A DNA stretch of 64,000 nt from a virus: positions 32,001-96,000 of the IMG/VR virus record IMGVR_UViG_3300046170_000446; one strand, 5' to 3'. Positions 19,438-59,338 of this stretch are shown one piece after another. Each line of letters opens with the position of its first letter. Positions within the stretch are counted from its first letter, which is position 1. The notes beneath the pieces are model-generated. The model was not told where the DNA came from. It worked only from the letters and a program-made list of their open reading frames with translations, and searched no databases. Both the position numbers and the translations under genes were made by a program.

Positions 19438-19449
19438 AAAAGGGCTTTC

Positions 19450-19986: not shown

Positions 19987-20058
19987 CGCGCCTGGCAGGG
20001 GTCGAACCTGCGACCAATGGCTTAGAAGGCCACTGCTCTTCCACTGAGCTACAAACGC
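19987..20058 (-). tRNA. tRNA-Arg(UCU)
   Basis: GCGTTTG/CAGGCGC acceptor stem, GTGGC-CTTCTAA-GCCAT anticodon arm, TTCGACC T-loop. Confidence 0.92.
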
Positions 20059-21380: not shown

Positions 21381-21418
21381 AAGATCCCTCCTTTAAGAAA
21401 AATGAAAAGAGCCAGATT

Positions 21419-21707: not shown

Positions 21708-21774
21708 CTATCTTTACCTTAATCCTTAAGCGCGTTAGGTTGTCTTAACCTGTAAATATCCGAGGCGACAGAGC

Positions 21775-22752: not shown

Positions 22753-22796
22753 CTCACGTCGAAAAAACGATCAGGTTTTCTCCCTCTATCCTCTAG

Positions 22797-23234
22797 TTGA
22801 AAATACGAGTGAAGGCTGGAGAGGGTAGGGACATGAGCATAACTGACTATATCAACTTCTTATACAGAGGATTTATCCACTGCTGTCAAAGAAAAAGCTC
22901 TCTTCATGAGAGCTTTAAGATTATGTGGCTTTTCTTAGACTGTTGGTTTACAGGCCACCTTGAAGACTTCGTAGACGTGTGCTCTGAGAACCTTGTTTTC
23001 GGCTTAAAAGACATCAGACCGTTACCCAAAGTCGATGACCTTCAGGACTTTGCCATAATTCTATGTTGGAACAGATCTTGTACTCTTTGGTTTTGTCCGA
23101 ATACAAGATTAACCACTGTTAAAGAGGGATCAGAGGCGCTAATCCGCCATTGGGAATGGAAGATCGCGAGCGGTGACTTAGAGGTGGTCGAGATAGACCC
23201 TCTTATTGTTCAGGATATCCTTAACCCTGAATAA
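22797..23234 (+). CDS. Hypothetical protein
   Basis: ORF; likely start is MSITD. Confidence 0.45.
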   Translation: MKIRVKAGEGRDMSITDYINFLYRGFIHCCQRKSSLHESFKIMWLFLDCWFTGHLEDFVDVCSENLVFGLKDIRPLPKVDDLQDFAIILCWNRSCTLWFCPNTRLTTVKEGSEALIRHWEWKIASGDLEVVEIDPLIVQDILNPE

Positions 23235-23463
23235 CCCAATCAGGCTTCTCGCGCTCTCCGAGCTTGACTCCTCGACCCCAAGCGTAACCTTCTTTGAAGG
23301 CAACCGCTTTGTCGCTCAAGTCGCTTTCTTCGTACTTATCTTGCTCACTCAAGGTGTAGCCCCAAATGTAGCCTTGCTGGAAAGCGAGAGGGTCTTTAGA
23401 GGGTAGCTCTCCCATGTTCATGCGGAGTATCTGAGGTGTATTTGACGTTTTCATCATTGGCAT
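23221..23463 (-). CDS. Hypothetical protein with two AFxxGYxWG repeats
   Basis: AFQQGYIWG and AFKEGYAWG. Confidence 0.55.
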   Translation of the reverse strand: MPMMKTSNTPQILRMNMGELPSKDPLAFQQGYIWGYTLSEQDKYEESDLSDKAVAFKEGYAWGRGVKLGEREKPDWVIQG

Positions 23464-23483
23464 GGCGAGTGCTCCCGTTAGTC

Positions 23484-24662: not shown

Positions 24663-25315
24663 TACACATCGCCTTCATCATTAGACCAAAGGAAGAAACG
24701 ATCCTCTTCTCTGTGGATCAGACCGCTCTTGACTGTTTGACCTGCTCTCTTACCGCGAGAGAAGGTGTGTTCTCTACAGAACATTTTTTTCTCGACCTCA
24801 CTGAGATCGTCTGCTGTTAATACACTATCTAGATGTAAAAAGAACCGCCCCGCTGAACGAGCGACCAAGTAGGCATCTGCTTCATTGTGGTTCCAGCGAG
24901 CTTTTGTGTTGGTATCTTTCTTCGCTGTATCCACCATATCAGCCTTCAACATCTTCCATCCTTTCGGTCTACCCAAGGACTCTCTCGCTAGAGCTTTGAC
25001 TTGCGGGGGGGTGAAGAAAACAACATCGGCCTTAGACTCATACAGTGCCTCACACGAATAGAGAAAGAGCCCATACATACCCTCAGACCACAGGGCGTTA
25101 AAGATCGGGTACTCGATACCAACCCGATCAACATTGTGCTCTGTAATCAGCGAAATGAGGCGTTGTCGCATCTCCATATAACGCGTAACGAAGAGTTGCT
25201 TCTTCTTTGTTTGCCACCTCCCTCTAGCGACACACCTACCAGCTTCCTTAGCTTCCGTATCGTGTACCGCCCAACCGAAGTTGGTTAAGGAGGGGTCTAA
25301 TCCTAACACTCTCAT
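24662..25315 (-). CDS. ruvC: RuvC-like Holliday junction resolvase
   Basis: MRVLGLDPSLTNFGW, VGIE, P.QVK and HNEADA. Confidence 0.85.
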   Translation of the reverse strand: MRVLGLDPSLTNFGWAVHDTEAKEAGRCVARGRWQTKKKQLFVTRYMEMRQRLISLITEHNVDRVGIEYPIFNALWSEGMYGLFLYSCEALYESKADVVFFTPPQVKALARESLGRPKGWKMLKADMVDTAKKDTNTKARWNHNEADAYLVARSAGRFFLHLDSVLTADDLSEVEKKMFCREHTFSRGKRAGQTVKSGLIHREEDRFFLWSNDEGDV

Positions 25316-25415
25316 AAAAACCTTTCTTACATACGAAGAAGGGGGATGAGCCCATCGTGAGCCCACCCCCCTTTTAATCTAAAACCTTAGTGCCTGCTCT
25401 TAATCTTAAAGACTA

Positions 25416-26135
25416 TCAGTCATCGTCTAAGATGTCTCCGAGCATATCATCAATCTCGCCTGAAGAAGCGCCGACGCTACCAGTAGGATTAGCGACCTCA
25501 AGACCGAGCTTCTCCTTGAACTGATCAAGCGTATAGTCATTAGCGAGAGTGTTGTTGATGTTCTCAACGACGTTCTGAGCCTTCGTGATCACGTCCTTAG
25601 CGATTGAGCTGTCCTTGCTCAAGAGCGTAGCGAAAAGATTATCGCGAGTGATCGAAAAGTCCATCTTCTGAAACTGCGTGTCGGTACAAGCGATGGTGAG
25701 ATCATGCTCAGAGAGAGGCCACTCTTGGTGCTTGCGAAGGATTGACTTTACCTTGTCCTCGGAGAAGACCCAAGGCATGACCTTGTACTCACCGTTAGCG
25801 AGCGCAGTCTTGTCAGGGCGACCGTCCTTGAGAGGCCAAGAGACGATCACAGTGCCGATTGCGAGACGAGCCTTCTTCACCTTAGGATCAACTTGCTGTG
25901 CAACACGGAGAAACTCAGGCCCCTTGTCGAGCACATAACCAGCGCCCTGCACATACATACGGTGGCAAGAAGCGAACTGAGGAGAATTCTCCATGAGAGG
26001 AGTACCGTCTTCGATGCCCTTCCACCAAAGGAAAGAAACGCGGTACTCCTTGCCCTCCTCGCCTTTAAAGCGATCTGACTTGTAAGAGCTAGGCACTGAG
26101 CCTGGGTTGTCGAGTGTGAATGTCGAGAATGACAT
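25416..26135 (-). CDS. Single-stranded DNA-binding protein (gp32-like)
   Basis: Acidic C-tail (DILDDD), HDL.I.CTD..FQK, located in the recombination block. Confidence 0.6.
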   Translation of the reverse strand: MSFSTFTLDNPGSVPSSYKSDRFKGEEGKEYRVSFLWWKGIEDGTPLMENSPQFASCHRMYVQGAGYVLDKGPEFLRVAQQVDPKVKKARLAIGTVIVSWPLKDGRPDKTALANGEYKVMPWVFSEDKVKSILRKHQEWPLSEHDLTIACTDTQFQKMDFSITRDNLFATLLSKDSSIAKDVITKAQNVVENINNTLANDYTLDQFKEKLGLEVANPTGSVGASSGEIDDMLGDILDDD

Positions 26136-26261
26136 AATGTAAACCTCCGAAAGGGGGGTGTGTGGTTAATGAGTGGGTTTTTAGGCTTGGGTCGAAAGTG
26201 ACAAAAGAAAGAAACTAGCCTCCCACGTCTCATATACACTTTGACGTGAGAATGTTGACCA

Positions 26262-35176: not shown

Positions 35177-35361
35177 CAAATTAATTTGGGCTTCAGGCAA
35201 AATGTTTTCAAATTAATTTGGGCTTCAGGCAAAATGTTTTCAAATTAATTTGGGCTTCAGGCAAAATGTTTTCAAATTAATTTAACCTTAAATCGAGCCT
35301 AGAAGCGGTTTAACCTCCAAATTAATTTGGGCTTCGGGCAAAATGTTTTCAAATTAATTTG
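35177..35361. repeat. Iteron-like 32-bp repeats with a palindromic core CAAATTAATTTG (putative origin)
   Basis: CAAATTAATTTGGGCTTCAGGCAAAATGTTTT at 35177, 35209, 35241 and 35318 (one mismatch); partial copies at 35273 and 35350. Confidence 0.85.
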
Positions 35362-35570
35362 CTCGCAAATTGTTTTCAGCGGGGCAAATCTTTTTGTCTC
35401 TCATCAAAATCTTTTCAAGTCGCTAGAAGAGGTTTTCCAGCCTCTCGCCCCTGTAAGCTGTTGATTTCTTTGAGTTATTTTGTTTAGTATCTTTTAGAGA
35501 GTGTTTCTAATCTTTTCTAGATTAAAAAATCTACTTATCTAAAGATAAAGTACCCCTAAAATAATGAAAG

Positions 35571-35687
35571 ATGATCATTACTACTATGATGATTATTAGT
35601 ATGAGTATGACTACTACTAGGACTAGTATCAGTAGGATGAGTATGAGGAGTAAGAGTAGGATTATTATGAGCGACGTTATTATTATT
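35571..35687. repeat. Degenerate trinucleotide tract (A-N-N)n
   Basis: 34 consecutive triplets start with A (ATG ATC ATT ACT ACT ATG...). Confidence 0.8.
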
Positions 35688-36140
35688 CACATGGACTTCC
35701 CCACTCTACCCTATAAGTCTACTTAGATAATTTACTTCTACCTACTTAGAGATTTAACGGCTCTCTCTCAGTAGAAGCACCCGACTATCTAGTAGAGGGT
35801 GGTGAGGTTGTGGAGCCTCCTTTAAACCTCTGTGATAAGAATAAGGTCTTATCCGCTAGAGGAACAGAGAGGGTCGCTGTTGGTAGACCCTATTTAGCCT
35901 ACCTACCTTCTCTGCAAGGTTCTCCGAGTCCCTTCTCCAAGAGGAGTTAGGGCAACCCATGACTAGGATTTGTAAAGATCGCTAGAGGTGGCTCCCGCAC
36001 GTTTCCACGACATCTCTATCTCGGTTTTCAATCAAGTCTTGAGTGTGGGCGCTCAAGCCTCTCAACCGACACACCTCCAAACGGAGGGTCTAGCAAGGTT
36101 CTTATGTAGCCCCAAACTGAACCCTCCGTCAAGAGCCTTT

Positions 36141-39100
36141 TTACAGGTTATGTGCGAGGTACTCTGAGATGTCACCGCGAAGACCTGGGTACACGACGCT
36201 TAGCTGAGCGAGTGATTGTAGGTCGCTCGCTTGTTTACGGCGCTTAGTACGCTTAGTAGTCTTCGACTTGGTAGTCTTAGGCTTAGTACGCTTAGTAGTC
36301 TTAGGCTTGGTAGTCTTCGACTTGGTAGTCTTAGGCTTGGTAGCCTTAGGCTTGGTACGCTTAGTAGCCTTAGGCTTCGTTCGCTTGGTAGCCTTAGGCT
36401 TAGGCTTAGTAGCCTTAGGCTTCTTCGTTGTCTCAGCTAACTGAGTGCCAGCTTCCGCAATCGCCTGATTGAGGAGCTTCTTAACGGCTCTCTTGATAGC
36501 GCGACGGTTTTTCTCAAGACCCTCCTTCGCCACATAAGGAACACCATGCTTCTTAGCGATAGCCTTTAACGGAGTCGCCTTGATGCTTGAGTCTGCAAGT
36601 GCGCTAAAGTCTGTCTGCAAATCTGCAACCTTCTTAGCGATAGCTTTAGTGGTCTTGGTAGACTTGGTGGTCTTGGTAGACTTGGTGGTCTTGGTAGACT
36701 TGGTGGTCTTGGTAGACTTTGGTAGACTTGGTGGTCTTGGTGGTCTTGGTAGACTTGGTGCGCTTAGTACGCTTTGTACGGGCTCTAGACGAACGCTCTT
36801 CTAGTCTCGCAAGCTCAGCCTTCAATCTCTTTCTGATCTCTCTCAGGATCGCTTTACGGGCTTCTTCTTTAGTAGCTGTCGTTACAGAAGGAGTTAAGCC
36901 GTATTTAACAGAGAGTGCCTTGAGGTCTTTAACCTTCAAACCGCTGATACTGCGACCTCTTAAGTCAAGGAACTGCCTATCTGCGGATAACTCCTCTGCG
37001 CTGATTGTAGGAGTCGTCGGTGCGGTGGTCTTAGTAGTCCTTCTTTGAGCTCTCTCAGCAGACCGAGCCTTTGCCCTGTCAAGCCTCTCACGTCTCTCGT
37101 TACGCTCCTTGACTCTCTTAACGCGAGCTTTCCGAGCCTCTTCCTCAAGACGTTTCTTACGCTTCGCTTCTGTGTCTGCTTCAGCAAACTCTTGGCGAAC
37201 GCGAGGCTTCTTTTGAGGTGCGGTAGCCTGAGTTGTACGAGCCACTCTTACCGACTTAATGTGCTGGAACGCACTATAGCGACCCGCAAAAGTGTTCAAG
37301 TCAAACGAAGAGAGGTTAATCGACTCACTACGAGAAATCTCAGCAAGAGCATCCTTATCAGGGGCGCTGTAAACGCGGTTGATATAGTTGTCAGCCCCTT
37401 TGCGACCTTCTACGGTGTTCAGGTCAAACGCTGAAATATCTCCGCCCACAGATCGAGCCTTGATGTTTAGGTCTTCTGCCGAGATCACAGTATCTGCGCC
37501 TTCTTCTATGAAGGAGCTCTTGATGTTCTCAACTTGCTCGTCAATCTTACGGACAATGTTGCGTCTTAGACTCGCTTCGGTAGAGCGAGCTGTTACACGG
37601 ATGCCGAGCTTCTTAGCCACTAGAGCCAGCTTCTCAACTCCCTCAACAGGTCTGTTTCGCTTAACCGCAGTATTGGCTTTCTTTAAGCCTCTCTTACGCT
37701 CGCTGACGAGAGCCCGCGCACTCTTAATATTAGCGTCTAGCTCTACAAGTGCAGAAGCCGCTCCTGTATCGCCCTTACGCTTTGCTTGATTTAAAGAGGC
37801 TCTATTGCTGACGAGGCTCGCTAAGCTACTCTCAGCATTTTGGAGCAGAGTCTCTAGCTTGGTAACCTCGTCCTCTAAGACTTTAGGATTAACTCTCGAC
37901 TTCATTTTCAGAAGGTCTGCGATGTCCTTAGCGCCCTTAGCATTCTTAGCCGCTACGTCTCTTAAGACTTCTAGCTCCGCACTGTCCGTCACCACGCGCT
38001 CAAGTTTCTCTTCAGCGCCACGTTGCTCAGCAATCGCCTTATCTGCATCCCCACGCGTCTTTAGGCGCTTCTTAAGGCGCTCATCAAGACGCATACTTAA
38101 AGTGCTTAAAGGTGTAGATGCTCCCTGAGGATAGTCTTTCTTTAGGTACTTCATCTCGCCATAAATGCCTGCTTCTACAGCCTGCTTTGCGAGCGTGTCG
38201 AACATAAGCTCGTAAAAGCGTTGGTCAGCACCACCTGAGCCTGGGTCACAGATATAAAAGTCAGGATTACCCGTAATCCCGTAAGCCTGATACATAAACT
38301 CTGCGTACTTCGCTTCGTTACCTGCCAAGAGCGCCTTCTCTGCTCTAGCTTTGATGCCTCTAGCTTTCTTAGTTTGCGCAGAGGTAGGAGTCTTGGCATT
38401 AAGAGCAAAGAAAGCCACGTTCCCTGCATTCTCGATCTTCCGCTCAAGATTAGCGATCATGGTCGCACCGACGCGAGCTGGCTTACGCTTGATGCCTCGA
38501 AGAGAGACTCCCATCTCCTCAGCTTGAGCGATGGTTTCTTCCCAACGATTAAGAAGTGCTCTCTGCTCACGGGTTTGTTGCGAGGTTCTCGTCTCCCTAC
38601 GTACCGTTTCAATCTCTTGAGCGAGATTAAGAGCCCTGGACGTTTGCTTCGGTAACGCGCTTCTTACTCACAGCCTTTGCTTGAGTGCCGTTAATCTTAG
38701 CACTCAACTCGCTAATAATCGCTCTGACTTGATCAGCATCTACACCGTCTCTACGGAGCTTATTAGCCAATGCAGTTACTCTAATCTTAGCCTGCTTAGC
38801 CTGTTCGATAAGACCCTCAGCACGCTGTTTCTCTGCTTCAAACTCACCGCGCTTGGTTTCAATCTTGTCACGAATATCACGGACGACCTCTGCGAGCTCG
38901 ATCTCGTTGTACTGGTTTTTCAAGATGAGACGGCAGAAGTAGCTCACATCATCAGAAGACAAGAAACGGCTTGAGTCGAGTAGATTAGCCGCGTTGGTTA
39001 CAGCTTGGTAAAGCTCGTTAGTAATGTCACCATTCGCGACGAGTGCTTTGTAGCGTGTCTTAAGAGTGTCGAGCCGAGCCTCTGAGATGAAGTTTTTAAC

Positions 39101-42100
39101 TCTGCGGGGGTTCTTCTCAAACTCTGCCTCAAGAGCTTCCATTGAGAGTCCGACTTCTTCAAGGTCAGTAAGCCCAACCTCACTCATACTAATATTAGCT
39201 TGGCTCGTACCAATGCTGTAACGGTAAAGGTGATGTCTAACGAGCTTTTGACTCAGATCAAAAATCTTAACGAGCGTCTCGTTGTCTTTGACGTGCTGGT
39301 CTACTTCGCTAAGTAGTCGGTACATACGGGGATTAGCATCTGCCGTAGAGATATACTGACCTGAGAATACATGCTCAAGAATATCAAGGATCTCACCTTT
39401 GGTGATCTCAACACCTTCAGCAACCTGTAATCTCTTTGAGAGCTGAGCCTTGGTTAAAGAGCTACGGGCGCGGTCAACAGAGCCGACTGCCCCTCTCTTC
39501 GGTAAAATCTCGCTGATGATGTGAAGAGGGATGCCCTTTGAGGTCAAATACTCACGGCAGAGGTTATCTTCAAGGCTCTCGCTGATGCGCCCAATCTTCG
39601 CAAAGTCTTGAGCTATCGACATCTTACGAGGCTCAAGGATAACCTTACGCCCCTTCTTAATCGCGCCGACACCCTCCTTTACGCTATCGAGTACCTCTTG
39701 GATGTCACGGTAGAGCTTCTCTGCCTTAGCGCGGAGCTTTCGATTATTAGTCGTAAGATTAAGACCCTCTACACTGCTCTCTCTTATTGCTTTGTTGAAG
39801 CTCGCATAGGCGCTCTCAAGGATGTCTCTCTCCTGCTCGAAAGATTTCTTACGCGCTTGTTCTGTCGCAAGCTCTTGTCGGAGCACAGCGATCTGACTGT
39901 CAATCTCATCTCTAAACCTATCAGAGCGCGTTCGTGCTTTCTGATTTTCAGCGCCTACGATCTTCTCCTCAAGATCGCTAATCTTAGCCGTCTGACGAGA
40001 CTCTGCATAAGCCTTAGCGTTTTGGATACGTCTTCTAAAGCGCATCCCAATCTCTTCTCTCACTGTTGAAGGACGCGTGGAGTCCATCATGCGAGTCCTT
40101 GACTGGCTTCCCCCTGTGGGTCGGCGGATTTCGCTAAGGTAAACGGAGTACCAATCATTAGCGAAGTCCTCTAAGAAATCGTCCACCTCTTCCTCGACAG
40201 AGACTTGGAAGCTGTCTTTGAGCTCCGCGAACAATCTGCGTGCTTCAACCAATGCTTCTCTTGTAGTCAAGTCCGTGGTGAGAGGCTCGCCCATGTTCGC
40301 CTTAGCGAAGTCACCTGAAGAGTTTTTAGCGACCTCATTAAGTATCGCTTGGGCAGAAGACTTGATCCCCTTAACGCCAATCTTCTTTAGTACCTCTGCG
40401 ATCTTCTCTGCGGATAGACCTTCTGCAAATAAACGATACGCAATAGCGTAAGATAAGTTGCTTGGGATTGCGCCAGCCTTAGAGTCAATGCTCGCGAAGT
40501 ATTTAGAGAGCAAGTCGTCTTTTGCGCTCATCGTGCGGATAATGTCTGCGAGAGACATCTTATTTTTCTTACTCTTATACTTAGTGACCATTAAGATTAG
40601 GTCAGCGATCTCTTTAGCATTACCGCTTCTTAAAGCAGACGGATCAAGCCCTAGTTTAGTCAAGACTTTAGCCTGAGGTTCTGAGAGCGCATCTCCACCG
40701 AGCACCGTAGCCTCTATCTGATCCATGCCTGCGACACCCTCAGACTTTTGGAATACCGCGTTGATCGCTTGTAAGGCTTGGCTCTTATTAAAGTTAGCCT
40801 TAAACTTATCCTCTGCGAGCTTAACGACGCGCTTCCCCATGTATACATCAAGCACTCTTTGGTCGAGTTTCCTCTCTAACTCTGCCTTCTCGTCTTTATT
40901 TAGCTTAGCTCTAAAAGCCTCTAATCGACCTGGATCACTAGGAGCTATCTTGTCGCCGATCTTAATCTTCTTTTTTCTTTCACTCGTCCATGTATGACAG
41001 AACCGCACGAAGATGTTTCTTTGGTTAGCACTCAGCCCCATGTAATAATCATGGAAATCAGGGTCGAGGTTTCTGCTGTGTGCGATGTCTTGAATAAGAC
41101 GGTCACGAATAGGCTTCATTACGTCTTCAGAGATCGCGACCTCTTCAAAACTACGGCTCGCCCTAGGCTTATCTAAAGTCTCGTAAAGGCTAACCAACTC
41201 TTCTTCGCTCATGTAAAGGGAGAGCTGTGGCATATTAGAAGAAGCCGCTTCCCCTTCTACTCTAGCTGAGAGCCCCTCAGTGTCTTCTTCCCCCTCTTCA
41301 GGAGAACCGCTAAAGACATTTACCCCTGCGCCTCCTACCTCAAGGCTGTGTCCGAAATAACCTCTTAGGGCTGAGACAGCACCTCTTTCTTTAGCGTCTA
41401 TAAGTCTTTCGAGGCGCTTTTTCGTTACCTCAAACCCTACAGGGGCGCTGTTACCTTTAGCTACTGAGGCTTCAACTTCATTAATTTGACGAGTAAGTGT
41501 GCCAATCAAGGAGTCGACGTCTTTAGACCTTTGCTCTCGGACTTCCCCTTCCGTGAAAGCGTCTCGACCGCGCTCAAGTAAAGCGGTGTAATCTCTTTGG
41601 ATGTCCGTCACTAAAGTTTTGACAATATTTTTGACCGCGTTGATGAACACTTGATTACCGTCTGCAACGTCTACAAACGACACTCTCTCATTGTTCGCCA
41701 CAGTACGGGCAATACCCTCGACAGACTTCTTGTCGGTCTTAAGGTCGTCAGCGATAACGTTACCTTCTGCATCTACGAGCTGATTAGTAGATGCGCCATA
41801 AAGAACAGATTTAGCTTTCTCCATAACGGCTTCAGGGTGAGTTTGAGCGAGTTTTATTAGAGTATAGACGATAACACGGCCTGCGGTTCTCTTATTCTTT
41901 GAAGCCCTTGCAGGATTTTGAAGGAGCTTAGTGCCAGGCACTGGGCCGAGGTTGTCCATGACAAGCTCTCTAAAGCTAGCATTGTTCCACCAAGGGTGGT
42001 TACCTGAGAGAGCTCTAGATATCGTTGTCCGAGGGTCACCGCCTCCACCACCGCGCAGACGCTTTCTTTTCGACGGAGTTGAGCCTTTGTTGAGCCCCGC

Positions 42101-42730
42101 TTTCAACTCGTTAAAGAAAATTGACTTAGCGTCTGCTATTTGCAGTAGCTTTTGTCTGTAAGCCTCGTCACCCTCCGCCTTTTTAGGGTCAAGCCTGATA
42201 GGTAAAGGTACTCGGCTTTTTCGGTTTTCAAAATACACAATCTCCGTTAAATCAGGCTGTCTCCCTTGTACGGTTAGATTGATAGAAGAGATCTCACTCT
42301 GAAGATAATTGAGTTTTCTTTGCTTCTCTTTCTTCAATGCCTGTTTACTTTTGTTAGAGGTGCGTCGAGTCAGCAACTCCTCAAGGTAAGCTCTTCTAAA
42401 CAGGTACTCAAAACCCTCCGCGTCTGAAATCATTGCGCGGAACTCATAGTCTCCATCATCTTCTTCAGAGGCGACACGCGCATTAAACTTGGCAAATGCG
42501 TCTTTGTTAAGGTAAGGCGTTTTCTTAGAAGCTACCCTTGGAAGACCATTACCCTGAGCCCGCTCAGAAGCCTTTGCTTCTCGACTGACCACATGTGACA
42601 TCTTAAAAGAGGGGAAGAGGTTCGCGACGATCTCCAAAAGACGGGCTGTCTTGGTCATATCACTCGCCAGCTTACGGTAAGGTCTTCTTACAGCATTCAT
42701 ATCGGGTGTTCCTTTATAATCTAAACTCAC
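36141..42730 (-). CDS. Giant (~2195 aa) helical protein with HEH-like modules and a histone-H1-like Lys/Thr tail; split in three by extra bases at 38638-38639 and 36718-36720
   Basis: Removing one base at each site fuses ORFs 38627-42730, 36646-38514 and 36141-36620 without a stop (ANVRALNLAQE...EEMGVS; KSTKTTKAIAKKVADLQTD). Confidence 0.7.
36240..36420 (-). repeat. KPKATKRT/KTTKSK coding repeats
   Basis: Tandem CTTAGG/CTTGGTAG units. Confidence 0.85.
36648..36760 (-). repeat. 9-bp unit repeats encoding (KST/KTT)n
   Basis: GGTAGACTT/GGTGGTCTT tandem on the + strand. Confidence 0.9.
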
Positions 42731-43088
42731 TTAACCTTATCTTTAAGATAAAGGGATAAATGAGAACCTGTAGCATAAAGCTCCCGACACCTTCCCTTCC
42801 TTACTTTACTTCTGCAAAACACATAAACGTGCTTGTACTACACGCGCAGGCGCGTGCTGAGCGTGCAGAAAAACAGGGCTCGAAAAAACTTTTAGGGCCT
42901 TAAAGTATTAAAAACTAAAGGTAAAGAGGGTACTCAAGGGATAAAGTAAGAAAAAAGTAGTTGTAGCTACTGGTCAGGTAGTGTAGACCTATCCATGTCA
43001 GCGTGACTCCTGTGTAACGCACCTAGTCATAACGCTGTACTGACTTAAACCTCCCAAGTAGGGCAACGCGCCCTAAGGAGACATACCG

Positions 43089-43727
43089 ATGAGTAACACT
43101 ACTACTGAAAAGTGGCTGGCTGAAAACTACGATGAGTTGAATAAGACTCTCGTTACTTTCCTGAGCTACCGTTTCCCTCTCTCCTCTCAGAGGAGCATTG
43201 TCGAAGACCATATCTCAAACTTCATGTGTGAGCTTCTCGCTAAAGATACCCTGAGCGGCGTAACCGATCTCACCGTTAAAGGAGTTGCTTCACTCGCTTT
43301 TAACTCAACCCATAATCATATCCGCACTATGAGTAAAGACCCTGCCCATAAACTCCGATATGGCGGTATGACTGAGGCTGAGAGGAAGAAAGCTCAAGAG
43401 CGGGGCGAGTCTCCTGCCGACTTTATGATCGCACGTAATGAGGTCTTAAAGGCTCGGCTTCAAGATCAATCTCCAGTCGCAGACTTGAGCCCTGAAGATC
43501 AGCTCTTTTTCGTGGAGCAGATTAAAGCGATGGAGGCTACCTTGCTGAGGCACTTCGGCAAGAGCGAAGCAAAGCTCGACCGAGCCATGAGAGTCTTTAA
43601 TCTCATGCTAGAGGGCAACGGCAATCGTGAGATCGCCAAGGAGATGGGCATCACCAACACTATGGCTAACAAGTGGGTGGCTAAGGTGAGGCTAATCTTA
43701 GACTCACACCGCTTATCTCTCGTCTAA
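43089..43727 (+). CDS. RNA polymerase sigma70-family (ECF-like) factor
   Basis: Region 2-like VEDHISNF..LL and ...AFN...NHIR; region 4 HTH EGNGNREIAKEMGITNTMANKW. Confidence 0.7.
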   Translation: MSNTTTEKWLAENYDELNKTLVTFLSYRFPLSSQRSIVEDHISNFMCELLAKDTLSGVTDLTVKGVASLAFNSTHNHIRTMSKDPAHKLRYGGMTEAERKKAQERGESPADFMIARNEVLKARLQDQSPVADLSPEDQLFFVEQIKAMEATLLRHFGKSEAKLDRAMRVFNLMLEGNGNREIAKEMGITNTMANKWVAKVRLILDSHRLSLV

Positions 43728-43743
43728 AGCCTACTTAGACACT

Positions 43744-43819
43744 AAAAGATATAGAATTTGAGCACCGAGGGTAGGCGTGGCACACACGCTCCCTCAATAG
43801 CTCAATTTCTTAGTCTTTT
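43744..43819. other. Long imperfect hairpin between convergent genes (terminator or small RNA)
   Basis: AAAAGA..AGAATTTGAGC..GAGGG..GCGTG pairs with CACGC..CCCTC..GCTCAATTTCT..TCTTTT. Confidence 0.5.
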
Positions 43820-43885
43820 CGACACGGGTTAATCAGCAGAGGACTCAAGGTTGATTATATATTCCTGTCGGAGGGTACATGGTCA

Positions 43886-45179
43886 TTAAACCGCTACAAA
43901 CTCAAGAGAGTTGCTGATGTGTTGAAGTGAGGGGTTATTAGTTACGATGTAACCCATGTCGCTATCACGCGTTACGAAGTGAGCACACTGACAGTTAGAG
44001 GCGAGCTTAATCGCGCCTACTCTTGCTTCTTCAAGGGTAGGGAAGCACATGACTGAGTTGTTGAGGTTTTCTGAAGCTCTGCGAGACAAGCCTACAAGAA
44101 TAACCTCGTCTTGAGGTACGGACATGGTTTTACCGCTGTGAGGCATACCGCTGTTGTCATGCTTGTGCTCAACCATTCTCTTCCGTGTGCGCGGATCATA
44201 ATAAATACCCGTAACGGTAGCCGTCTCACCTAAGTGCTCAATCCTGTCAAAGAGTCTACCCTCTTGCCCATTAGCATCTAAGAAAGACTCAATGCGGATA
44301 CCTGAAGAAGCCTTGCGCTGATTAGAGCAACCTGCATAGATAAACGCTTTGCAGACATTTCTTGTTGCAATCGCAAAAGCTCTACCTTGATTGTAGTTGT
44401 GCTTAAGCATCAGGTGGTGCGCCCACATATCTCTCATCTGCACAAACTGTTCCCTGTTGACGGTATCGCCTTTGCCTACACCGAGTCTTCTTACGAGCGT
44501 TGAGAATTTAGGCTCAAACTCGTTACCACCTGTCTCTGCTAGAAGTTGCTGGCGGATCGCCTTGTTTTTCCTACGCCCCCTACGGCTAGGGGTGTCTAAG
44601 TCCGTAGAGATTTGCTTCTCTGTACGGCGTGCTACACCTCTGAGTGCTCTAATGTTAGGGTCTTTCTTTTCAGCGTTGATATTCTGAACTATGCGATCAA
44701 ACTTTCGGAGCTGACCGCCGCTTGCCGCGTGGAGGCGCAATAAGATTTCTTTGCGCTTACGGCCTAAGTCGCTGATCTCAACACGGAGAGCCTGAGCCAT
44801 GTCTCTGAGTTGATTGAGGCGCGGTAGAGATGAGCCTGGGATCGCTCTAAGGACTTCAATGTCTGCTTCAGTCATGTTGAGACGAGCGCGAAGCTCTTGC
44901 TCTGTCTTCTGTACCTTCTTAGTCCTCTTTGAGAGAGACTTAACACGCTTAGTGCGCTTAGCTCTAGTAGTCCTTAGCCTTAGCCTTAGTCGCTTTCGGC
45001 ACTGAGATTACAGGGACATAGGTGTCCTTAACCTCTTTAAGCAGGGCTTTCTTTTGCTCTACGCTTTTCGCTCGACTGAGTTTGCCTTTGAGCTTCTTAG
45101 CTTCAGCAGGTGTAATACGAGCTCCTTCTTCAATGAGCTTGAAGATAAGGTTCATAAATTTCTTCTCGAAATTTTTCAT
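43886..45179 (-). CDS. Basic multidomain protein (~430 aa) with a Lys-rich linker and an HEH-like module; split by an extra base at 44972-44973
   Basis: Removing one base joins 44964-45179 to 43886-44875 via KTTRAKRTKRVKSLSKRTKK. Confidence 0.65.
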
Positions 45180-45231
45180 AGTTCCCCCTCATTAGGTTAG
45201 TGTTAGTTTAATGAGAGGGAGGAATAAAAGA

Positions 45232-46089
45232 TTAACCGAGCACAGGGTTAGAGTACCCTGCTAAAACTCCTCGCTGATATTCCATTGAGGGAAGTTGATG
45301 AGCGAGCTTGGTATTCATCTTGAGTGAGAGCATCTTGAAAGCGCCTTTGAAGCCATACTTTTTGACTGCTAAGACCATCCAGCTACTAAACCATGTGCCG
45401 AGGACGATCTTGATGCTTGTAAAGAGCGCCACTGTCCACCCAAGAGTGATCGTACCCTCTGAAAGCACCGCAAAATAGCTCATCACCCACGCCCACCCGA
45501 AGAAGGATATCGCCGCGACGACAAGAGAGACTCCCAAGAAACCTGCGAGGTAGGTCAACACCTTTTGCGCGGTGCCTTTAGGTTTAAAAGCGTCTGTAGA
45601 CTTACCTGAACTGAGGATCTTGCTACCCTTAGTAAACTTATCAACCGTCTCAACGACCTTGGAGAGAAGGCGCTCAGACTTTCTGCGCTCTTTTTTAGCG
45701 GCTCTCGCAAACTCTTTGAAATCCTCGTAGGTCATTTGAGTGATTTCAAGATCAAAGCGATCTCCATTAAGATTAACGAAGATCTTCGCATCGCAGAGCG
45801 CACCTTGATAGCTGATCTTTATACCGTCAGCTTCAAAACGCGTAAGGGTTTTCTTGAAGTATGCCTCAGCCTGTTTGCGTTCCATATCAAACTTAGCCGT
45901 AATATTACGCTTACCCTCTACGCGGGCTCTCTCAATTTTAACCCTTTCCTCAGGAGGGATCTCTGCAATGCCTTTAGCGAGCTTAGAGATCGTTTTGTTA
46001 AGGCCGTAGTGCATACGAAGCACGTCATCGCCATTACGTAGGTAAACACCTTGGCGGTTTAAGTCTCGGATGAAATCGTTTGTACTCAT
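45232..46089 (-). CDS. Membrane-hairpin protein, paralog 3
   Basis: LNxxGVY..N..D...YGL...KLA leader; hydrophobic hairpin followed by KYGFKG. Confidence 0.7.
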   Translation of the reverse strand: MSTNDFIRDLNRQGVYLRNGDDVLRMHYGLNKTISKLAKGIAEIPPEERVKIERARVEGKRNITAKFDMERKQAEAYFKKTLTRFEADGIKISYQGALCDAKIFVNLNGDRFDLEITQMTYEDFKEFARAAKKERRKSERLLSKVVETVDKFTKGSKILSSGKSTDAFKPKGTAQKVLTYLAGFLGVSLVVAAISFFGWAWVMSYFAVLSEGTITLGWTVALFTSIKIVLGTWFSSWMVLAVKKYGFKGAFKMLSLKMNTKLAHQLPSMEYQRGVLAGYSNPVLG

Positions 46090-46135
46090 TTTTTTTCCTC
46101 GTTAAGTGTGTCTTTTAATGAGGAAGATCAAAAGA

Positions 46136-46954
46136 TTAACCGATAAATACGTCAAACTGACTTAAGAGGTAAGCCTGTTTTTTAAGTGGGGGCGCATCGT
46201 GGGCTAGCTTTGTCAAGTTTCGTGCTTTAAGTTTAACGCGGTTAACAGTCCCTTTAAAGCCATATTTTCTTACAGAGGCCATCAGCCACCTGAATAAGCC
46301 CGCCCCTAAGATAATGGACAAGTATGCCATAACACCAGGTTGACCTGTCAGGATAGCGAGCACCATTAAGATTTGAGTGGCATGAGCACCTAAGTCTAAG
46401 ATGTGTGTGACTAAGCTAATCAGCATCTTTGTCTTACGGGAGGGCTCTTTAGGCACTTCTCCTTTCCCCTCGTAGACAACTAAAGAGAGGTTAGAGAGCT
46501 TCTCTACCTCTTCTACAGCCTTCTCTAAATACTTCGCATAATCTTTATTTAGTTTACTCGTTTCCGCTACAAAAGCCTTAAACTCTTTTAAGTCTAAGGT
46601 GTCACCTCTACGGTTTAAGTAGTTGTTTGTAATCTTAAACGAAATATCTCCGTTATGGATCGCGCCTCTAACTTCTATGAACACGCCGTAAGCGCCGTAT
46701 TTACTGAGGGACTTTTCTACATAAGAGTCCATTTTATCTTTGGCTTTATCTAAGACTTTCTTGAGGTTAGCCTTGCTATCTCTCTTCGCGTTATCGAGCA
46801 TCTCTTGTTCTTTATTACTCAGGCTTTGAGTCCCTGAAGCGAGCTTCTGCAACCCTTTCATTAAGCCGTAGTTGAAGCGGATAGCGTCGTTACGGTTTTG
46901 GATATAGATACCCTCTGAGTTGAGGGCGCGTACCATTGAAGCGTATCTTTGCAT
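46136..46954 (-). CDS. Membrane-hairpin protein, paralog 2
   Basis: MVRALNSEGIY, TNNYLNRRG and VYEGKGEVPKE shared with 46972-47829. Confidence 0.75.
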   Translation of the reverse strand: MQRYASMVRALNSEGIYIQNRNDAIRFNYGLMKGLQKLASGTQSLSNKEQEMLDNAKRDSKANLKKVLDKAKDKMDSYVEKSLSKYGAYGVFIEVRGAIHNGDISFKITNNYLNRRGDTLDLKEFKAFVAETSKLNKDYAKYLEKAVEEVEKLSNLSLVVYEGKGEVPKEPSRKTKMLISLVTHILDLGAHATQILMVLAILTGQPGVMAYLSIILGAGLFRWLMASVRKYGFKGTVNRVKLKARNLTKLAHDAPPLKKQAYLLSQFDVFIG

Positions 46955-46971
46955 GATGTTTTATCCTTTTA

Positions 46972-47829
46972 TCAGTAGCGGTAAGCCATCATTAAGCCGA
47001 CTTGATAATCCACCGAAGGTCGAGCAGACGCAACTTTTAGGCTTTCCTTTACTCCTTCTTCGACATCGCGAGATTTCAGCTTAAAGTAGTTAAAAGCGTC
47101 TTTGAAGCCGTACTGTCTTACTTTGTTAATGAGCAATGCTAATAAACCAGCGCCTACAATTCCTACAAGACCTCCTAAGACCCCCAAAATACTCATCTCT
47201 AAAATACCACCCCCTATTAACAACCCTACACAGGCTATACCTTCATATAAAGCAGTGCCGATACCTAAGAGAGCTAATACATTAGTGACGACTTTCTTTG
47301 TCAGTGAGGTAACCTCTTTGGGGACTTCACCTTTGCCTTCGTACACTAAAGAGGACAAGTTGATTAATCTATCAACCTCCTCCATCGCTTCAGTCATGTA
47401 TTTAGCGTAGTCCTTCTTTTGCTTGTGGACTTCAGCAGTAAAAGCCTTAAACCCTTTAGCATCCAACTTCTCACCTCTACGGTTTAAGTAGTTGTTTGTA
47501 AGGGTAAACGATATGTCTCCTTTGTGGAGAAGACCTTCGTATTCGATCTTCAAACCGTAGTTGGTAAACCTACCTAGCTTCTTTTTAGCGTAGGCTTCCA
47601 TTTTCTTTTGGGTCTTCTCTGCAAACTTTTTTGCTCTTTCCTTAGCGCCCTTTTGAGCTTTCTCTAAGGCTTCAGCGTCTTTAGGGCTCATCTCTTCAGG
47701 TAGCTTCGATGCGAGCTTCTGTAAACCTTTAAAGAGTCCGTACTCAACACGGATCATGTCGTTGCGGTTTCGGACATATATACCCTCTGAGTTGAGAGCG
47801 CGTACCATTGATGAAGCATATTTATACAT
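46972..47829 (-). CDS. Membrane-hairpin protein, paralog 1
   Basis: Same blocks as paralog 2; Gly-rich hydrophobic hairpin. Confidence 0.75.
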   Translation of the reverse strand: MYKYASSMVRALNSEGIYVRNRNDMIRVEYGLFKGLQKLASKLPEEMSPKDAEALEKAQKGAKERAKKFAEKTQKKMEAYAKKKLGRFTNYGLKIEYEGLLHKGDISFTLTNNYLNRRGEKLDAKGFKAFTAEVHKQKKDYAKYMTEAMEEVDRLINLSSLVYEGKGEVPKEVTSLTKKVVTNVLALLGIGTALYEGIACVGLLIGGGILEMSILGVLGGLVGIVGAGLLALLINKVRQYGFKDAFNYFKLKSRDVEEGVKESLKVASARPSVDYQVGLMMAYRY

Positions 47830-47883
47830 AAGTCTTCCTTCACTGTTAGCAGGTTGATCTAAGGATAAGAGGGTATATAAGGA

Positions 47884-48684
47884 TCACTGAGCCTTAGAGA
47901 TTAGGCTAGAAAACAGCTCTGTGTAAGGGTCTTTAAAACTCTCTAGCTCATCGTTATCCCGTACCTTTTGCCAAAGCGCATCTGAGTCCAAACTCTCATC
48001 CCCATCCATATTCCAGTAATCTATGAGGATCTCTTGCCCTAAAGAAATGTCCTCAGTAGCTATGATCGCGACCTGCTTCCTTTTCGGGAATAGCTTAGCT
48101 AAAGCGTTCACTCCAGGTATGTCCTCAAGCTCAGGCTCAGCGCGGTTGCAGTTATAAAGCACTCCATTACCAAGAGGGATCGCCTTACGCGGAAATACCC
48201 AAGGATAGACGTAATCTATTAGACCACCTTCTACCGTCATCATAAGATAGGCAGACTCCGCAGGAGATATCACTAAGACAGGGCATACCTCAACGATGCT
48301 TCCTTTAGGGATGCTTAAGTTGGCAAACACCCCTCTCCCCTTAAGTCTGTTCATGTAAGAGACTTGGGTCTTTTGGATAATGTAATCAGGCAAGTCCATT
48401 TGATCAAAACTAGACTCTTGTTTAACGCCTAAAAGGAAGTTTTCGAGCTTCTGTAAGAAAACACTCTGAAGATTATTAATGTGGCAAGTCCCTCGGTACA
48501 TCTCGCCAGCGCCTAAGACACCTGACGGGTAGGCAGAGCACATTACAAAGCTATACTCTCCACTCGATTTATAGCTCACAGTGCAATAAGTGTCTTTGAG
48601 CTCTAACTCACATCGGAGAAATTTGTCAGTAGACATCTCTCGGTTAACTTGAGCGTCCATCCCTTTTAAGAATACGGGTAACAT
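47884..48684 (-). CDS. SET-domain protein-lysine methyltransferase-like protein
   Basis: KGRGVFA...IPKGSIVEVCPV, LGNGVLYNC (NHS-equivalent), IIATEDISLGQEILIDY. Confidence 0.8.
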   Translation of the reverse strand: MLPVFLKGMDAQVNREMSTDKFLRCELELKDTYCTVSYKSSGEYSFVMCSAYPSGVLGAGEMYRGTCHINNLQSVFLQKLENFLLGVKQESSFDQMDLPDYIIQKTQVSYMNRLKGRGVFANLSIPKGSIVEVCPVLVISPAESAYLMMTVEGGLIDYVYPWVFPRKAIPLGNGVLYNCNRAEPELEDIPGVNALAKLFPKRKQVAIIATEDISLGQEILIDYWNMDGDESLDSDALWQKVRDNDELESFKDPYTELFSSLISKAQ

Positions 48685-48697
48685 TAGAGACTCCTAA

Positions 48698-49664
48698 TCA
48701 GCTATTCGTGCCGTCAGTGTTGAATACCGCATCCCACCAACAGGCGATATCCCACTTGCCTTTGCCTGAGAAGTCTACATGATGGTGTCCCAAAATACCG
48801 CTATAATCGTTAAGAGCAAAGTCTTTATTGAGAACACCGTGGTGAACCTCGCCTTCCATATCCTCGCCATGCGATCCGCGAGGTGAGCGCATCGGAATGC
48901 AGAACAGCTCGCTTAGTCCTTCTACGAGGTGGCGGGTCGCTTCCGCGATCTTTGGGTCGAGGCTAAGAATATTCTTACGACCTACTGAAGTAGGGTTTTT
49001 AATCTTATGTATCTCGTACCCTTCTTTAGACTGATAGTGGTCATACCAATCATGAGTAGGTTGCTGGCAGATGTCGATACCTATAGAGGTCTTGTTAATA
49101 GGCCCACCATGCCATGCGTTGTGCTCAAGATCGAGCCACTGATAGATTACAGCCTCACCGTCTTCGTTAAGACCGATACCAAAGTGTGAAGACGCATCTC
49201 TTGAAGTGAATACATTATAGCAGTGCTTAGGATTAAGCCCTCCCCAATGGATAACAATGTTGCGGATTTCTTTGCCACTACGAGAAGAAAACTTACCGTA
49301 ACGGTGAAGGTCGAGCCCTCTAGGGTCATCGAAAGGCGTGATCAGCGTCTCAGAGTTAATGTTGAGGCGCTGGCCTCCATATACAACATAATTGTCTGTA
49401 ATCGGGTCATATGTCTTAAGCATATGAGTCCACGTTTGCCGACCAAAGTAGCCGTCTACGCTACCACTGTCAAAATGATCTGTTTGGTACTGGATGATAC
49501 CTTCAAGAAATTCAACGCTGTCGGCGCTATATGCCAAGTTAGGGTAGGCTGAGATCGCCCCTTCAGGGATAACCTTATCGCCCAAACCAAACCTCGCGTA
49601 CATCTTAGCATTAAACTTTTTCGCTTTAGATGCATTAATATTACTTCTGAACAAGTCACTCATT
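48698..49664 (-). CDS. N-acetylmuramoyl-L-alanine amidase (Amidase_2) with a peptidoglycan-binding-like N-terminus; probable endolysin
   Basis: VDGYFGRQT, IVIHW, ASSHFGI, AWHGG..NKTSIGIDIC, ILGHHHV...KWD. Confidence 0.85.
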
Positions 49665-49716
49665 GTGCTCACCTTCCTGCTGTGTTTACAGGCGAGCATT
49701 TATTTAAGGACTATGA

Positions 49717-57619: not shown

Positions 57620-58411
57620 ATGAAAAGAGTGGCTGAGGCTAAGAAAGCAGAAATCCTTACAGCAATCTTCGGGTCTGTCGAAGAAGCTGAAGCACGCTTG
57701 GATATGGTAAGAGAGGTATTTGAGAAAGTAGACCAATGGGCAGAGAGCTCCTTCTTTGCTTCTCTAATCGAACAAGTTGAAGGAGGTAAGATCACACCTC
57801 ACTTTGACACTCGCTCAGGCACATTAGACTTCGTTATTGGTGAACCTACGTCTGTTACTAATGACTCTCCGCTAAAAGCAGAGAAGCCCGCGCCTAAGAC
57901 CTCGAAACCGCGAAGAGTTAGACGCGCATTTAAAAACTCTGATGTCCGTAAAATATCTCTAGATGAGCTTAGGAAAGAAGCTGACAAGTTAGGCATTGAC
58001 GTGAGCCACTTAGGACGCAAGAAAAAAGAGATACTCGCGCTCTTGAATAGCTCTGCCGAAGAGCCTGAGGAGGTTAAGCCCGCCAAGTCTGTAGTGAAGC
58101 CTAAACCTAAAGCGGTAGAGCCTCCACTTCCTCAAACCAAGCCTCCGCAAGAAGAGAAGCCTAGCGACGACTTAAACTTCCTTGATGACTTTGACAACGA
58201 GCCTGTCGATGGAGGGAGTTTGTCCGAAGGCTTTGAGGTTGTTGTCGATGAGGTCTATATCCCTAAGTCTACCAAGTTTAACGCTACCTTATCGACAACC
58301 TTTGCGAAGAGAGGCAAGAAGGCTAATCTTAACCTAGGTTCGATCAGAGCGAGTGCGGGTGAGATTGACGTTGAGGATCTTCTTAAACCTGAGCCCAAGC
58401 CTGAGGCTTAG
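57620..58411 (+). CDS. Protein with an HEH/Rho-N-like module
   Basis: RBS AAGGAG; SLDELRKEADKLGIDVSHLGRKKKEILALL. Confidence 0.6.
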   Translation: MKRVAEAKKAEILTAIFGSVEEAEARLDMVREVFEKVDQWAESSFFASLIEQVEGGKITPHFDTRSGTLDFVIGEPTSVTNDSPLKAEKPAPKTSKPRRVRRAFKNSDVRKISLDELRKEADKLGIDVSHLGRKKKEILALLNSSAEEPEEVKPAKSVVKPKPKAVEPPLPQTKPPQEEKPSDDLNFLDDFDNEPVDGGSLSEGFEVVVDEVYIPKSTKFNATLSTTFAKRGKKANLNLGSIRASAGEIDVEDLLKPEPKPEA

Positions 58412-59338
58412 CCTTTACCGTAGTTTAAATAGTTAGCTACGGATTGGAGGATAGCGTGTGCTTGGGAGATTTTGCTCTCAGCCCAATCTTCTATGCAGGG
58501 GTTACTCTCAAGGTGCTTAAGAATGTCTCTAAGGTGGCTGTGGGTAGCGATAAGGTTTTGCCTGCTCATGTAGCAACCGTCAGAGCCTCCTAGTTGATCA
58601 AAAGCTCTTTTTACTGCTTTAGTCTTAGCTCTTTTCTCAGCGGCATCTAGGAAAGAAAGAGCAGTCCTCTTATCCGCAGACCGCGTAAAACTAAGGTTGC
58701 TAGGGAAAGTAATCCCTAAAGCCTTTGCCCTGCTTCTCAGCTCACCTGCGCTTGGTAAATTTTCATGTGAGCCATATTGATCGGCTAGCAAGACCCTTTG
58801 AACCGCTTGCATTTGCTTCGATGATAAATTGTCTCCGCGCTCTAACTGATTAATGATAGATAAAGTGAACGGAGAAGGGTCGAAAGACATACCCTTCAGT
58901 TTCTTAAGCAAAGTCTTGTTTTGACGCGTAATCTTAACGCCTGCTTTAGGGAAGAAATTTGCGATAGGTTTGCATCCAGGGGGCTCTTTGGAATGTGACT
59001 CTTTTTGCCGTAGCGACTTTCCCTGTAATGTCTAGGTCGTGAGTCCCTTTTAATACTACACCACCTTCATCTAATATGTAGTGTACCCAAAAATATTTAC
59101 CTCTAAATGAGGATTGGTGCGCTAAGACGAGCATTTTACTGCAAGCGAGAGTCCCTGCTGAAGTAAGGGAGCTTTGCGGGGCGAGTATAGCAGTGGGCTC
59201 GCTTAACCCATTTACGAAGTTGAGGACAAATCCTGCTTGAGCGGGGCTTGCCCAAGCCCCTCCCCTATTCTTGATAGCTCCTCTTAAAGACCTCGATATG
59301 TCTTCTATCTTGTCCATTTCTTGCTGTGTAATCGGCAT
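58408..59338 (-). CDS. Multidomain protein (~309 aa) with an HEH-like module and a C-terminal IEDWAESKIS domain; extra base at 58979-58983
   Basis: Removing one base joins 58946-59338 to 58408-58911 (RAPGCKPIANFFPKAGVKITRQNKTLL). Confidence 0.6.

Follow-up and report, generated by a model that had tools for sequence, protein, structure and literature searches.

Internal proteins of phage T4 and ejection proteins of SPN3US have already been described (PMC7697877, PMC10052503). In SPN3US the prohead protease recognises one fixed motif in its head and ejection protein substrates; N-terminal propeptides are 20-24 residues long, long propeptides are cut several times, and the protease itself has a propeptide at its C-terminus (PMC10052503). 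Small SET-domain proteins are a second point of comparison. Hc1, an H1-like protein of Chlamydia pneumoniae, is both a binding partner and a methylation substrate of cpnSET, Methanosarcina mazei Go1-SET methylates the chromatin protein MC1-alpha, and the characterised small viral and bacterial SET proteins (vSET, NUE, LegAS4) mostly target proteins of the other party (PMC3980110); SET genes have also been annotated in other phages, without an assigned function (PMC9025141). Here we consider a window of 64,000 nucleotides, namely bases 32001-96000 of the 105,117-bp IMG/VR virus record IMGVR_UViG_3300046170_000446 (positions below are those of the window unless called genome positions), and within it the block at 36141-48684. 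This block contains a giant gene of 2195 codons and a gene of 430 codons, both encoding lysine-rich proteins, and a SET-domain gene. CheckV puts the completeness of the record at only 27%, so the source is a very large phage; it is a huge, uncultured tailed phage.

According to our joint reading, to which we assign a probability of roughly 45%, the giant and the 430-residue protein are each the product of a single gene, would bind DNA, would be loaded into the prohead, trimmed by the prohead protease and packaged, the SET gene encodes a predicted methyltransferase, and the frame breaks present in this contig are specific to the assembly. We class the locus with those internal proteins of giant phages that a protease processes, here accompanied by a SET gene that is uncharacterised. 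A preliminary description of this DNA had gone further, proposing DNA-condensing proteins whose binding is tuned by phage-encoded lysine methylation and stating that tailed phages offer no described equivalent. That statement was too strong for packaged internal proteins, given T4 and SPN3US, but in the literature searched it holds for methylation-tuned ones.

The two lysine-rich genes are continuous in relatives

Under translation table 11, the giant gene of this contig falls into three open reading frames (ORFs) in three different frames, and the 430-codon gene into two (Table 1). Every junction requires a +1 shift, and once a single base is removed from each of three sites the pieces join into exactly 2195 and 430 codons. 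Near relatives of several genes of the record are present in JGI, ENA and Logan metagenome assemblies, and these allow the joined reading to be compared with independent sequences. A protein 91% identical to the giant (P0048) crosses the first junction in one frame (...NVQ, then ALNLAQ...). A second homologue (P0045; 1301 residues, 40% identical, with its 5' end cut) starts at about residue 940 of ORF1 and spans both junctions, running without interruption over the tail equivalent to break 2; after the ORF2 part come two tails, the first rich in K/T/P/E and the second a long one of K/T/A/P, with a bihelical module between them, and then a conserved C-terminal peptide. As for the shorter gene, the 90%-identity cluster of its 329-residue piece contains eight intact proteins of 424-430 residues from other assemblies, and P0017, P0022 and P0023 (430 residues) match the joined reading letter for letter. 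In the more distant contig L006 (Ga0181597_10042268) the homologue, 38% identical, is one ORF that runs across its own Lys/Ser/Ala-rich linker. All three junction sites are therefore read straight through in one frame in homologues from other assemblies, and the joined proteins are biologically right. The preliminary description, in proposing about 2195 and 430 residues, had tacitly read across the breaks; its sizes are right once these are corrected, whereas the ORFs of this contig, taken literally, would mislead annotation or synthesis of both genes.

The whole contig was scanned for stretches that look coding, have no start codon of their own and extend an upstream ORF. Only the three breaks were returned, after exclusion of two artefacts antisense to known genes and of one weak case (58411-59031, leader score 0.09), and the large enzymes encoded elsewhere in the record are intact. 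Judging from the aligned alleles, the breaks are single-base insertions specific to this assembly, that is, assembly or sequencing errors or strain lesions, and no recoding is involved. It could be supposed instead that they are biological, and that programmed frameshifting, quadruplet decoding or phase variation sets the amount of full-length protein, since all three frame breaks detectable in 105 kb lie in these two genes, all call for a +1 shift, and a second assembly has extra bases too, at CCAGG(G)CTC and at the CCAGGCTC site. However, near-identical relatives have these genes in a single frame, so that a shift site is not conserved. The contexts are AAA-G, AAG-G and CAG-G, and two of the three offer neither a slow codon nor a stop at the shift position; the quadruplets are unlike each other, and the same four bases are decoded as triplets in adjacent repeats. 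The tRNAs found in the window all have normal anticodon loops. Programmed +1 frameshifting and quadruplet decoding were rejected in view of the intact one-frame alleles and the ordinary tRNAs (Met, Lys-UUU, Arg-UCU), and we regard a biological origin of the breaks in any form as extremely improbable.

It should be noted, however, that both genes are broken in the contig at hand, and this variant of the phage may be without the full proteins, which counts against our reading as far as this particular phage is concerned. The independent contig L005 (Ga0228648_1001605), which overlaps the end of the block, stops only two bases short of break 3, at 44980. In a Logan contig (P0009, P0024) break 1 shows yet another surplus base, and the 430-codon gene has an insertion at its CCAGGCTC site (44832-44839). 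The frame-breaking extra bases of the two assemblies sit at CCAGG(G)CTC (38631-38639 and 44832-44839), a recurrence that may reflect a sequencing bias or a true hotspot.

Basic tracts, bihelical modules and the K-x-A-S motif

The giant and the 430-residue protein each appear to combine bihelical modules with very basic, H1-like tracts rich in K, T, P and A, and DNA binding by both, through charge and modules, is the most likely function of such a combination. The tracts are as the preliminary description had presented them: they are true tandem arrays (Tandem Repeats Finder, TRF, scores 133-218) with 26-36% K and 18-34% T. Net charge reaches +30 in the last 95 residues of the giant and +78 in its last 395, and P0045 carries a tail of the same character as basic tail 2. 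With linker histone H1 and the bacterial H1-like tails they have in common short periodic units made up of K together with T, P, A and S; the phage tails, however, are far richer in Thr, and the resemblance is purely compositional. In agreement with this, five ORF pieces searched against Pfam Linker_histone at E up to 0.1 gave no match, and the winged-helix globular domain (GH1/GH5) was not found.

Several helix-extension-helix-like motifs had been claimed for these proteins. For the 430-residue protein the claim stands in a weak form. AlphaFold2, given an alignment with the related modules of other contigs described below, models its module as a helix at 14-23, a linker of 11 residues and a helix at 35-45, with a predicted local distance difference test score (pLDDT) of 81-85 in the core; as modelled, it would resemble SAP, LEM, HeH and Rho-N domains in its pair of helices and in the extended linker between them. 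An exhaustive VIA structural search with this model ranks the SAP domain of MANF at the top (Z 4.2, root mean square deviation 2.2 A over 40 of 40 residues), with the Rho N-terminus at Z 3.9 and the LEM domain of emerin at Z 3.7. The SAP-like domain of CDNF, the LEM domain of LAP2 and the SAP domains of Hcc-1, Ku70, PIAS1 and SLX4 are also ranked (Z 2.8-4.2), and about 12 of the top 50 rows are SAP, LEM or Rho-N domains. A SAP/LEM/Rho-N-like fold of the modelled unit is plausible but weak. Several results weigh against it, and with it against DNA binding through the modules: the structural Z scores are low (2.8-4.2), seven module segments searched against Pfam at E up to 10 gave no SAP, LEM, HeH or Rho_N match, and a PDB profile search with the module returned none of these families either. 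Foldseek found no significant match to the model, and the one sub-threshold Rho_N match obtained (E 0.022) lies elsewhere in the protein of contig L011.

The module differs from those domains in being a family of its own, with D-I-S-D-L-G-R-K-K across the linker and the second helix. This signature (D-I-S-D-L-G-R-K/Q-K, in a module of about 40 residues not in Pfam) was found in eight further IMG/VR contigs (L010-L017, 40-297 kb), at the C-terminus of proteins of 177-189 residues and in the interior of proteins of 461 and 678 residues; no SET gene is present nearby in any of the eight. From its occurrence in otherwise unrelated proteins, the module of the 430-residue protein is taken to be a real mobile unit. 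The claim that the same motif occurs in the giant fared less well: a pattern common to both proteins exists, but a profile of the 430-residue protein's module does not detect the three giant modules (E 0.2 or worse), so that homology is unsupported.

Packaging would be indicated by the four-residue motif K-x-A-S. The 102 ORFs (32,084 residues) contain it 65 times against 15.0 +/- 3.9 expected from 300 within-protein shuffles (maximum 26), a 4.3-fold enrichment, and permutations of the same letters occur only 9-16 times, with K, A and S each the top-enriched residue at its own position. Occurrences cluster near the genes for portal and prohead protease (1290-9710 and genome positions 22264-26155), where four unannotated proteins of the head region have nine (817 residues), five (an acidic protein of 544 residues), five (653 residues) and three (286 residues). 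The prohead protease itself has two near its C-terminus and the portal one at residue 15, while the motif is absent from the identified enzymes PolA, RecD2, RecA, terminase, SET and amidase. The motif is also present where the preliminary description had placed it, at the borders of both lysine-rich proteins: in the giant at residue 20 and again 27 residues before its end, and in the 430-residue protein 36 residues short of the C-terminus. Such an enrichment, concentrated in head-module proteins, fits processing by the prohead protease and hence packaging in the virion, and K-x-A-S is probably the cleavage motif of this enzyme. Cleavage between A and S is typical of herpesvirus assemblin, a relative of phage prohead proteases. 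On this model the two lysine-rich proteins would be loaded into the prohead, the protease would trim them at the sites near their ends, and the trimmed forms would accompany the packaged DNA, whether they stay internal or are ejected. The earlier proposal of virion-packaged, DNA-condensing proteins thus gains indirect support from the enrichment and the positions of the motif.

A competing view is that the lysine-rich proteins are not packaged but work within the infected cell, where they might organise or protect phage DNA during replication, and that K-x-A-S is present in them by chance. The location of the genes suits it: they lie outside the head module, between the replication genes and those for amidase, GroEL and PolA, and beside the longest non-coding stretch in the record (35201-36140), 940 bp without an ORF that follow the giant gene directly on its downstream side. 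The giant, moreover, has only two occurrences of the motif, matching the 1.85 expected by chance, so that it is their positions and conservation alone that are suggestive. Ribonucleotide reductase, which is a non-virion enzyme, has two sites as well. These points weigh against packaging. On the other side, both sites of the giant lie within 30 residues of an end and read R-K-x-A-S-D, the same extended context. The sole K-x-A-S of P0045 (K-K-A-S, 28 residues before the end) occupies the place of the giant's C-terminal site, so this site is kept in a homologue that is 40% identical, and a small protein elsewhere also has a K-rich tract followed by K-V-A-S. We consider a purely intracellular role unlikely. 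Three K-x-A-S sites are present in the first 75 residues of the relative P0002.

Compared with the described systems, the distribution of K-x-A-S is like that of the short protease motifs that recur in many head proteins of T4, SPN3US and phiKZ, and at which proteins packaged together with the DNA are trimmed (PMC10052503, PMC5694885, PMC7697877). The motifs of those phages, however, end in Glu (A/S/G-x-E, L/I-x-E), so that K-x-A-S, if packaging is true, would be a processing motif unlike those of the giant-phage proteases. The lysine-rich proteins have no detected sequence homology to any known internal protein (no PHROG matches), and their own cleavage and packaging are inferred. If it does occur, very large and strongly basic proteins would be inside the capsid with the DNA, unlike the small internal proteins of T4 or the ejection proteins of phiKZ and SPN3US.

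Two further proteins carry basic tracts of a related kind. One, of 134 residues (genome positions 21320-21724), has a K/S/T/P-rich basic tract followed directly by K-V-A-S; the other, a head-module protein of 592 residues (3461-5239), has a K/S/T/P-rich basic tract near its C-terminus.

The SET gene and its relation to the lysine-rich proteins

The SET gene announced by the preliminary description belongs to the SET family. Pfam PF00856 matches residues 116-223 (E 1.8e-8, 35.2 bits against a cut-off of 22.4), and PDB profile matches were obtained with 4rz0 (PFL0690c, E 2.6e-8), 5h6z (Set7, E 3.6e-7) and 1n3j (vSET, E 0.0067). The G-x-G region (K-G-R-G-V-F-A) aligns with the same three structures, and the family shows no variation at F120, A121 and N122; E-I-L-I-D-Y is likewise invariant in the seven members (E218, I219, I221, D222, Y223) and aligns with I-L-I-S-Y and I-T-I-S-Y of solved SET domains. 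Between the alleles of the window and of L005 the synonymous divergence (dS) is 0.67 and the ratio of non-synonymous to synonymous divergence (dN/dS) 0.076, so the protein is clearly under selection. Its product is probably a lysine methyltransferase that binds S-adenosylmethionine (SAM), as predicted from these motifs, of the small viral and protist type. With vSET of PBCV-1, PFL0690c and Set7 of Schizosaccharomyces pombe, the best sequence-profile matches, it has a minimal SET architecture in common. It differs in having an extra family-specific N-terminal domain of 110 residues, and its host is presumably a bacterium free of histones, whereas vSET and Set7 act on eukaryotic H3. The AlphaFold2 model, from an alignment of seven sequences, is poor (pLDDT 55, core below 50), too poor for a judgement on the active site; on this model VIA returned MLL5, SETD6, EZH2 and Set7 at Z 4.8-5.2, and for the N-terminal domain only generic alpha+beta matches (Z up to 7.2).

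That the NH motif reads N-C, as had been noticed, was borne out by the profile alignment, in which N-C stands opposite the N-H kept in PFL0690c, Set7 and vSET. Asn178 is invariant in the seven family members, and the next position is Cys in six and Ser in one (P0008); a SET-like protein of a distant phage has N-L. Mutating the His of N-H abolishes the activity of SUV39H1 and DIM-5. The protein might accordingly be a catalytically dead binding module that has lost its SAM-contacting His, in a neighbourhood with no methylation function. We find this distinctly improbable, as G-x-G, the Asn of the motif and the catalytic Tyr of E-L-x-F/Y-D-Y are all invariant, dN/dS of 0.076 indicates constraint across the whole core, and the Cys is conserved, not drifting. 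In L006 a 1-nt insertion after TGGGG near the 3' end of SET (905-960 of that contig) leaves 230 residues, against 264 in its cluster mates.

The distant phage just mentioned (LR745208.1, 485 kb, uncultured) is the closest in GenBank, with a PolA 50% identical to that of the record. Its SET-like ORF is 35-36% identical over about 70-74 core residues, and its amidase gene lies 11 kb away from it.

Does the SET enzyme act on its lysine-rich neighbours? The SET gene lies four genes upstream, and the basic tails are one candidate substrate. We weighed the proposal that lysines in the K/T-rich tails of both the giant and the 430-residue protein are methylated by SET before or during packaging, so as to tune their grip on phage DNA. 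L006 has the same order of amidase, SET, membrane paralog and 430-codon gene, with identities of 51% for SET and 38% for the 430-residue protein, so that two lineages share the synteny of SET and the 430-codon gene; purifying selection on SET is strong; precedents exist in cpnSET with Hc1 and Go1-SET with MC1-alpha (PMC3980110); and the nearest solved relatives, Set7 and vSET, are histone-tail enzymes. Members of the SET and 430-residue clusters are also both found on 6927-bp contigs, which is consistent with one shared contig but no demonstration of it. Several observations, however, speak against such a link. When 44980-48831 is compared with L005, the end of the amidase gene and SET are 12% diverged and the next 2850 nt differ by 2 bases, with a sharp recombination breakpoint at the border of SET and the paralogs (about 47830). 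It follows that SET alleles shuffle independently of their supposed substrates, being freely re-assorted with respect to the paralogs and the start of the 430-codon gene. The start of the giant gene lies past the oppositely oriented helix-turn-helix (HTH) gene and behind a divergent gap of 358 bp; this gene therefore probably has a transcription unit of its own. The SET protein has no K-x-A-S site, and the His of its motif is replaced. As regards the co-occurrence of SET and the tail proteins, which the earlier proposal would lead one to expect, SET adjoins the region of the 430-codon gene in L006, but LR745208.1 has the SET-like gene with no homologue of the giant or of the 430-residue protein detected, an empty result that in this search shows little. 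Taken together, tail methylation is quite unlikely, though a reasonable hypothesis.

Another possibility is that SET acts on host proteins (nucleoid-associated, translation or envelope) as a takeover or late factor and is the neighbour of the lysine-rich genes through gene order only. This would agree with the habit of small viral and bacterial SET proteins of hitting the other party (vSET, NUE and LegAS4; PDB matches 1n3j and 5czy) (PMC3980110), with the tight coupling of SET to the amidase (a 13-nt gap and a shared recombination block; the two genes adjoin in L006 too), with the SET-like gene of the distant huge phage, in which the lysine-rich genes went undetected, and with the phage SET genes annotated elsewhere without function (PMC9025141). 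On the other hand, no target is predicted, and the N-terminal domain has no clear fold match (best Z 7.2). Host targets are somewhat unlikely.

The case of C. pneumoniae is a close parallel: one genome there encodes both a small prokaryote-type SET and Lys-rich, H1-like proteins that compact DNA; Hc1-type proteins serve the dormant, infectious form, and it is Hc1 that the enzyme methylates. The phage proteins, however, are far larger (430 and 2195 residues) and have SAP-like modules and putative protease sites, the phage SET has N-C for N-H and the additional N-terminal domain, and methylation is here hypothetical. One may imagine a minimal chromatin-like phage system, in which SET would methylate the H1-like tails of packaged proteins, or the Lys of K-x-A-S, and so govern hold, release or protection of the genome or cutting by the protease; we deem it highly unlikely. 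A conserved and selected SET gene beside lysine-rich genes would be a concrete and cheap entry to the question whether protein lysine methylation has any part in phage particle biology.

Phage context and coordinates

Block 36141-48684 is on the minus strand except for one gene (Table 1), in agreement with the mostly co-directional block of the preliminary description. The three paralogs that it had placed between SET and the 430-codon gene were found and are membrane proteins; L006 has a single copy at the equivalent position, and two of the three carry K-x-A-S. Its sigma gene is less certain: HTH-type matches exist, including phrog_3855 HTH (E 7e-4), but the HTH and region-4 profile matches are all sub-threshold. 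Scans for sigma-70 promoters and terminators and a search for intergenic 9-mers gave no signal common to the block.

Large terminase, portal and prohead protease genes were identified in the record, together with replication-type genes (clamp loader, sliding clamp, family A polymerase, RecA, RecD2 and ribonucleotide reductase) and a GroEL-like protein. Relatives were also sought elsewhere. Megablast and tblastn against GenBank phages with the block, the giant and SET found none, and of the block proteins only the amidase and the HTH protein have matches in PHROGs. No relatives came from scanning IMG/VR with the giant and P0002 or with the alignments of SET and of ORF2/P0045, from an initial metagenome scan with P0002, or from the ESM Atlas queried with ORF1 and the 329-residue piece; a word-based protein search with ORF2 found none either, its candidate list being swamped by low-complexity sequences.

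Table 1. Coordinates of the features discussed (window positions, except for the last row)
Feature	Position	Strand	Remarks
Giant gene	36141-42730	-	2195 aa (amino acids) after joining three frames
Giant ORF1	38627-42730	-	1367 aa
Giant ORF2	36646-38514	-	622 aa; frame open from 38667
Giant ORF3	36141-36620	-	159 aa; frame open from 36800
Giant K-L-A-S	42662-42673	-	Residue 20 (residue 10 from second Met); candidate N-terminal leader cleavage site
Giant third, weaker pattern	37510-37674	-	Pattern only
Giant bihelical module before tail 1	36808-36972	-	Pattern alignment; conserved in P0045; no Pfam match
Giant basic tail 1	36649-36780	-	KRT, KST and KTT repeats; 34% T, 26% K; TRF period 9/18, score 187
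Giant bihelical module between the two tails	36450-36614	-	Pattern alignment; conserved in P0045; no Pfam match
Giant basic tail 2	36241-36427	-	KPKATKRT and KTTKS repeats; 36% K, 26% T
Giant K-Q-A-S	36225-36236	-	27 residues before C-terminus, right after tail 2
Frame break 1	38631-38639	-	CCAGGGCTC, one surplus G (G run 38634-38636)
Frame break 2	36711-36723	-	Surplus A in ACCAAAGTCT (AAA 36718-36720), within 9/18-nt array encoding the KST/KTT tail
Frame break 3	44966-44978	-	Surplus G (GG 44972-44973) after (GCTAAG)x3 repeat
430-codon gene	43886-45179	-	Split: 45179-44967 (70 aa) and 43886-44875 (329 aa)
Helix-extension-helix module (SAP/LEM/Rho-N-like), 430-aa protein	44693-44857	-	Modelled; recurs in 8 other IMG/VR contigs
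K-L-A-S, 430-aa protein	43997-44008	-	36 residues before C-terminus
HTH protein (sigma gene of the preliminary description)	43089-43727	+	212 aa; divergent from giant gene; sub-threshold GerE, HTH_28, Sigma70_r4_2
Three paralogous proteins	45232-47829	-	285, 272 and 285 aa; hydrophobic hairpin at each C-terminus
SET-domain protein	47884-48684	-	266 aa; family-specific N-terminal domain 1-110; SET core about 112-224
N-acetylmuramoyl-L-alanine amidase	48698-49699	-	Pfam Amidase_2 3e-9; PHROG endolysin and amidase families
tRNAs (3)	18673-20058		tRNA-Met(CAT), tRNA-Lys(TTT), tRNA-Arg(TCT)
SET-like ORF of LR745208.1	16144-16644 of L004		166 aa; N-L for N-H; N-terminal Cys-rich segment

The Lys and Arg tRNAs of the phage suit its basic tails, in which AAA/AAG and AGA codons are used heavily. 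Another giant ORF (2493 residues) begins at 62399 and runs past the end of the window (genome positions 94399-101880). It has sub-threshold SNF2-related and Helicase_C matches and four K-x-A-S sites, and its product may be a packaged helicase-like protein.

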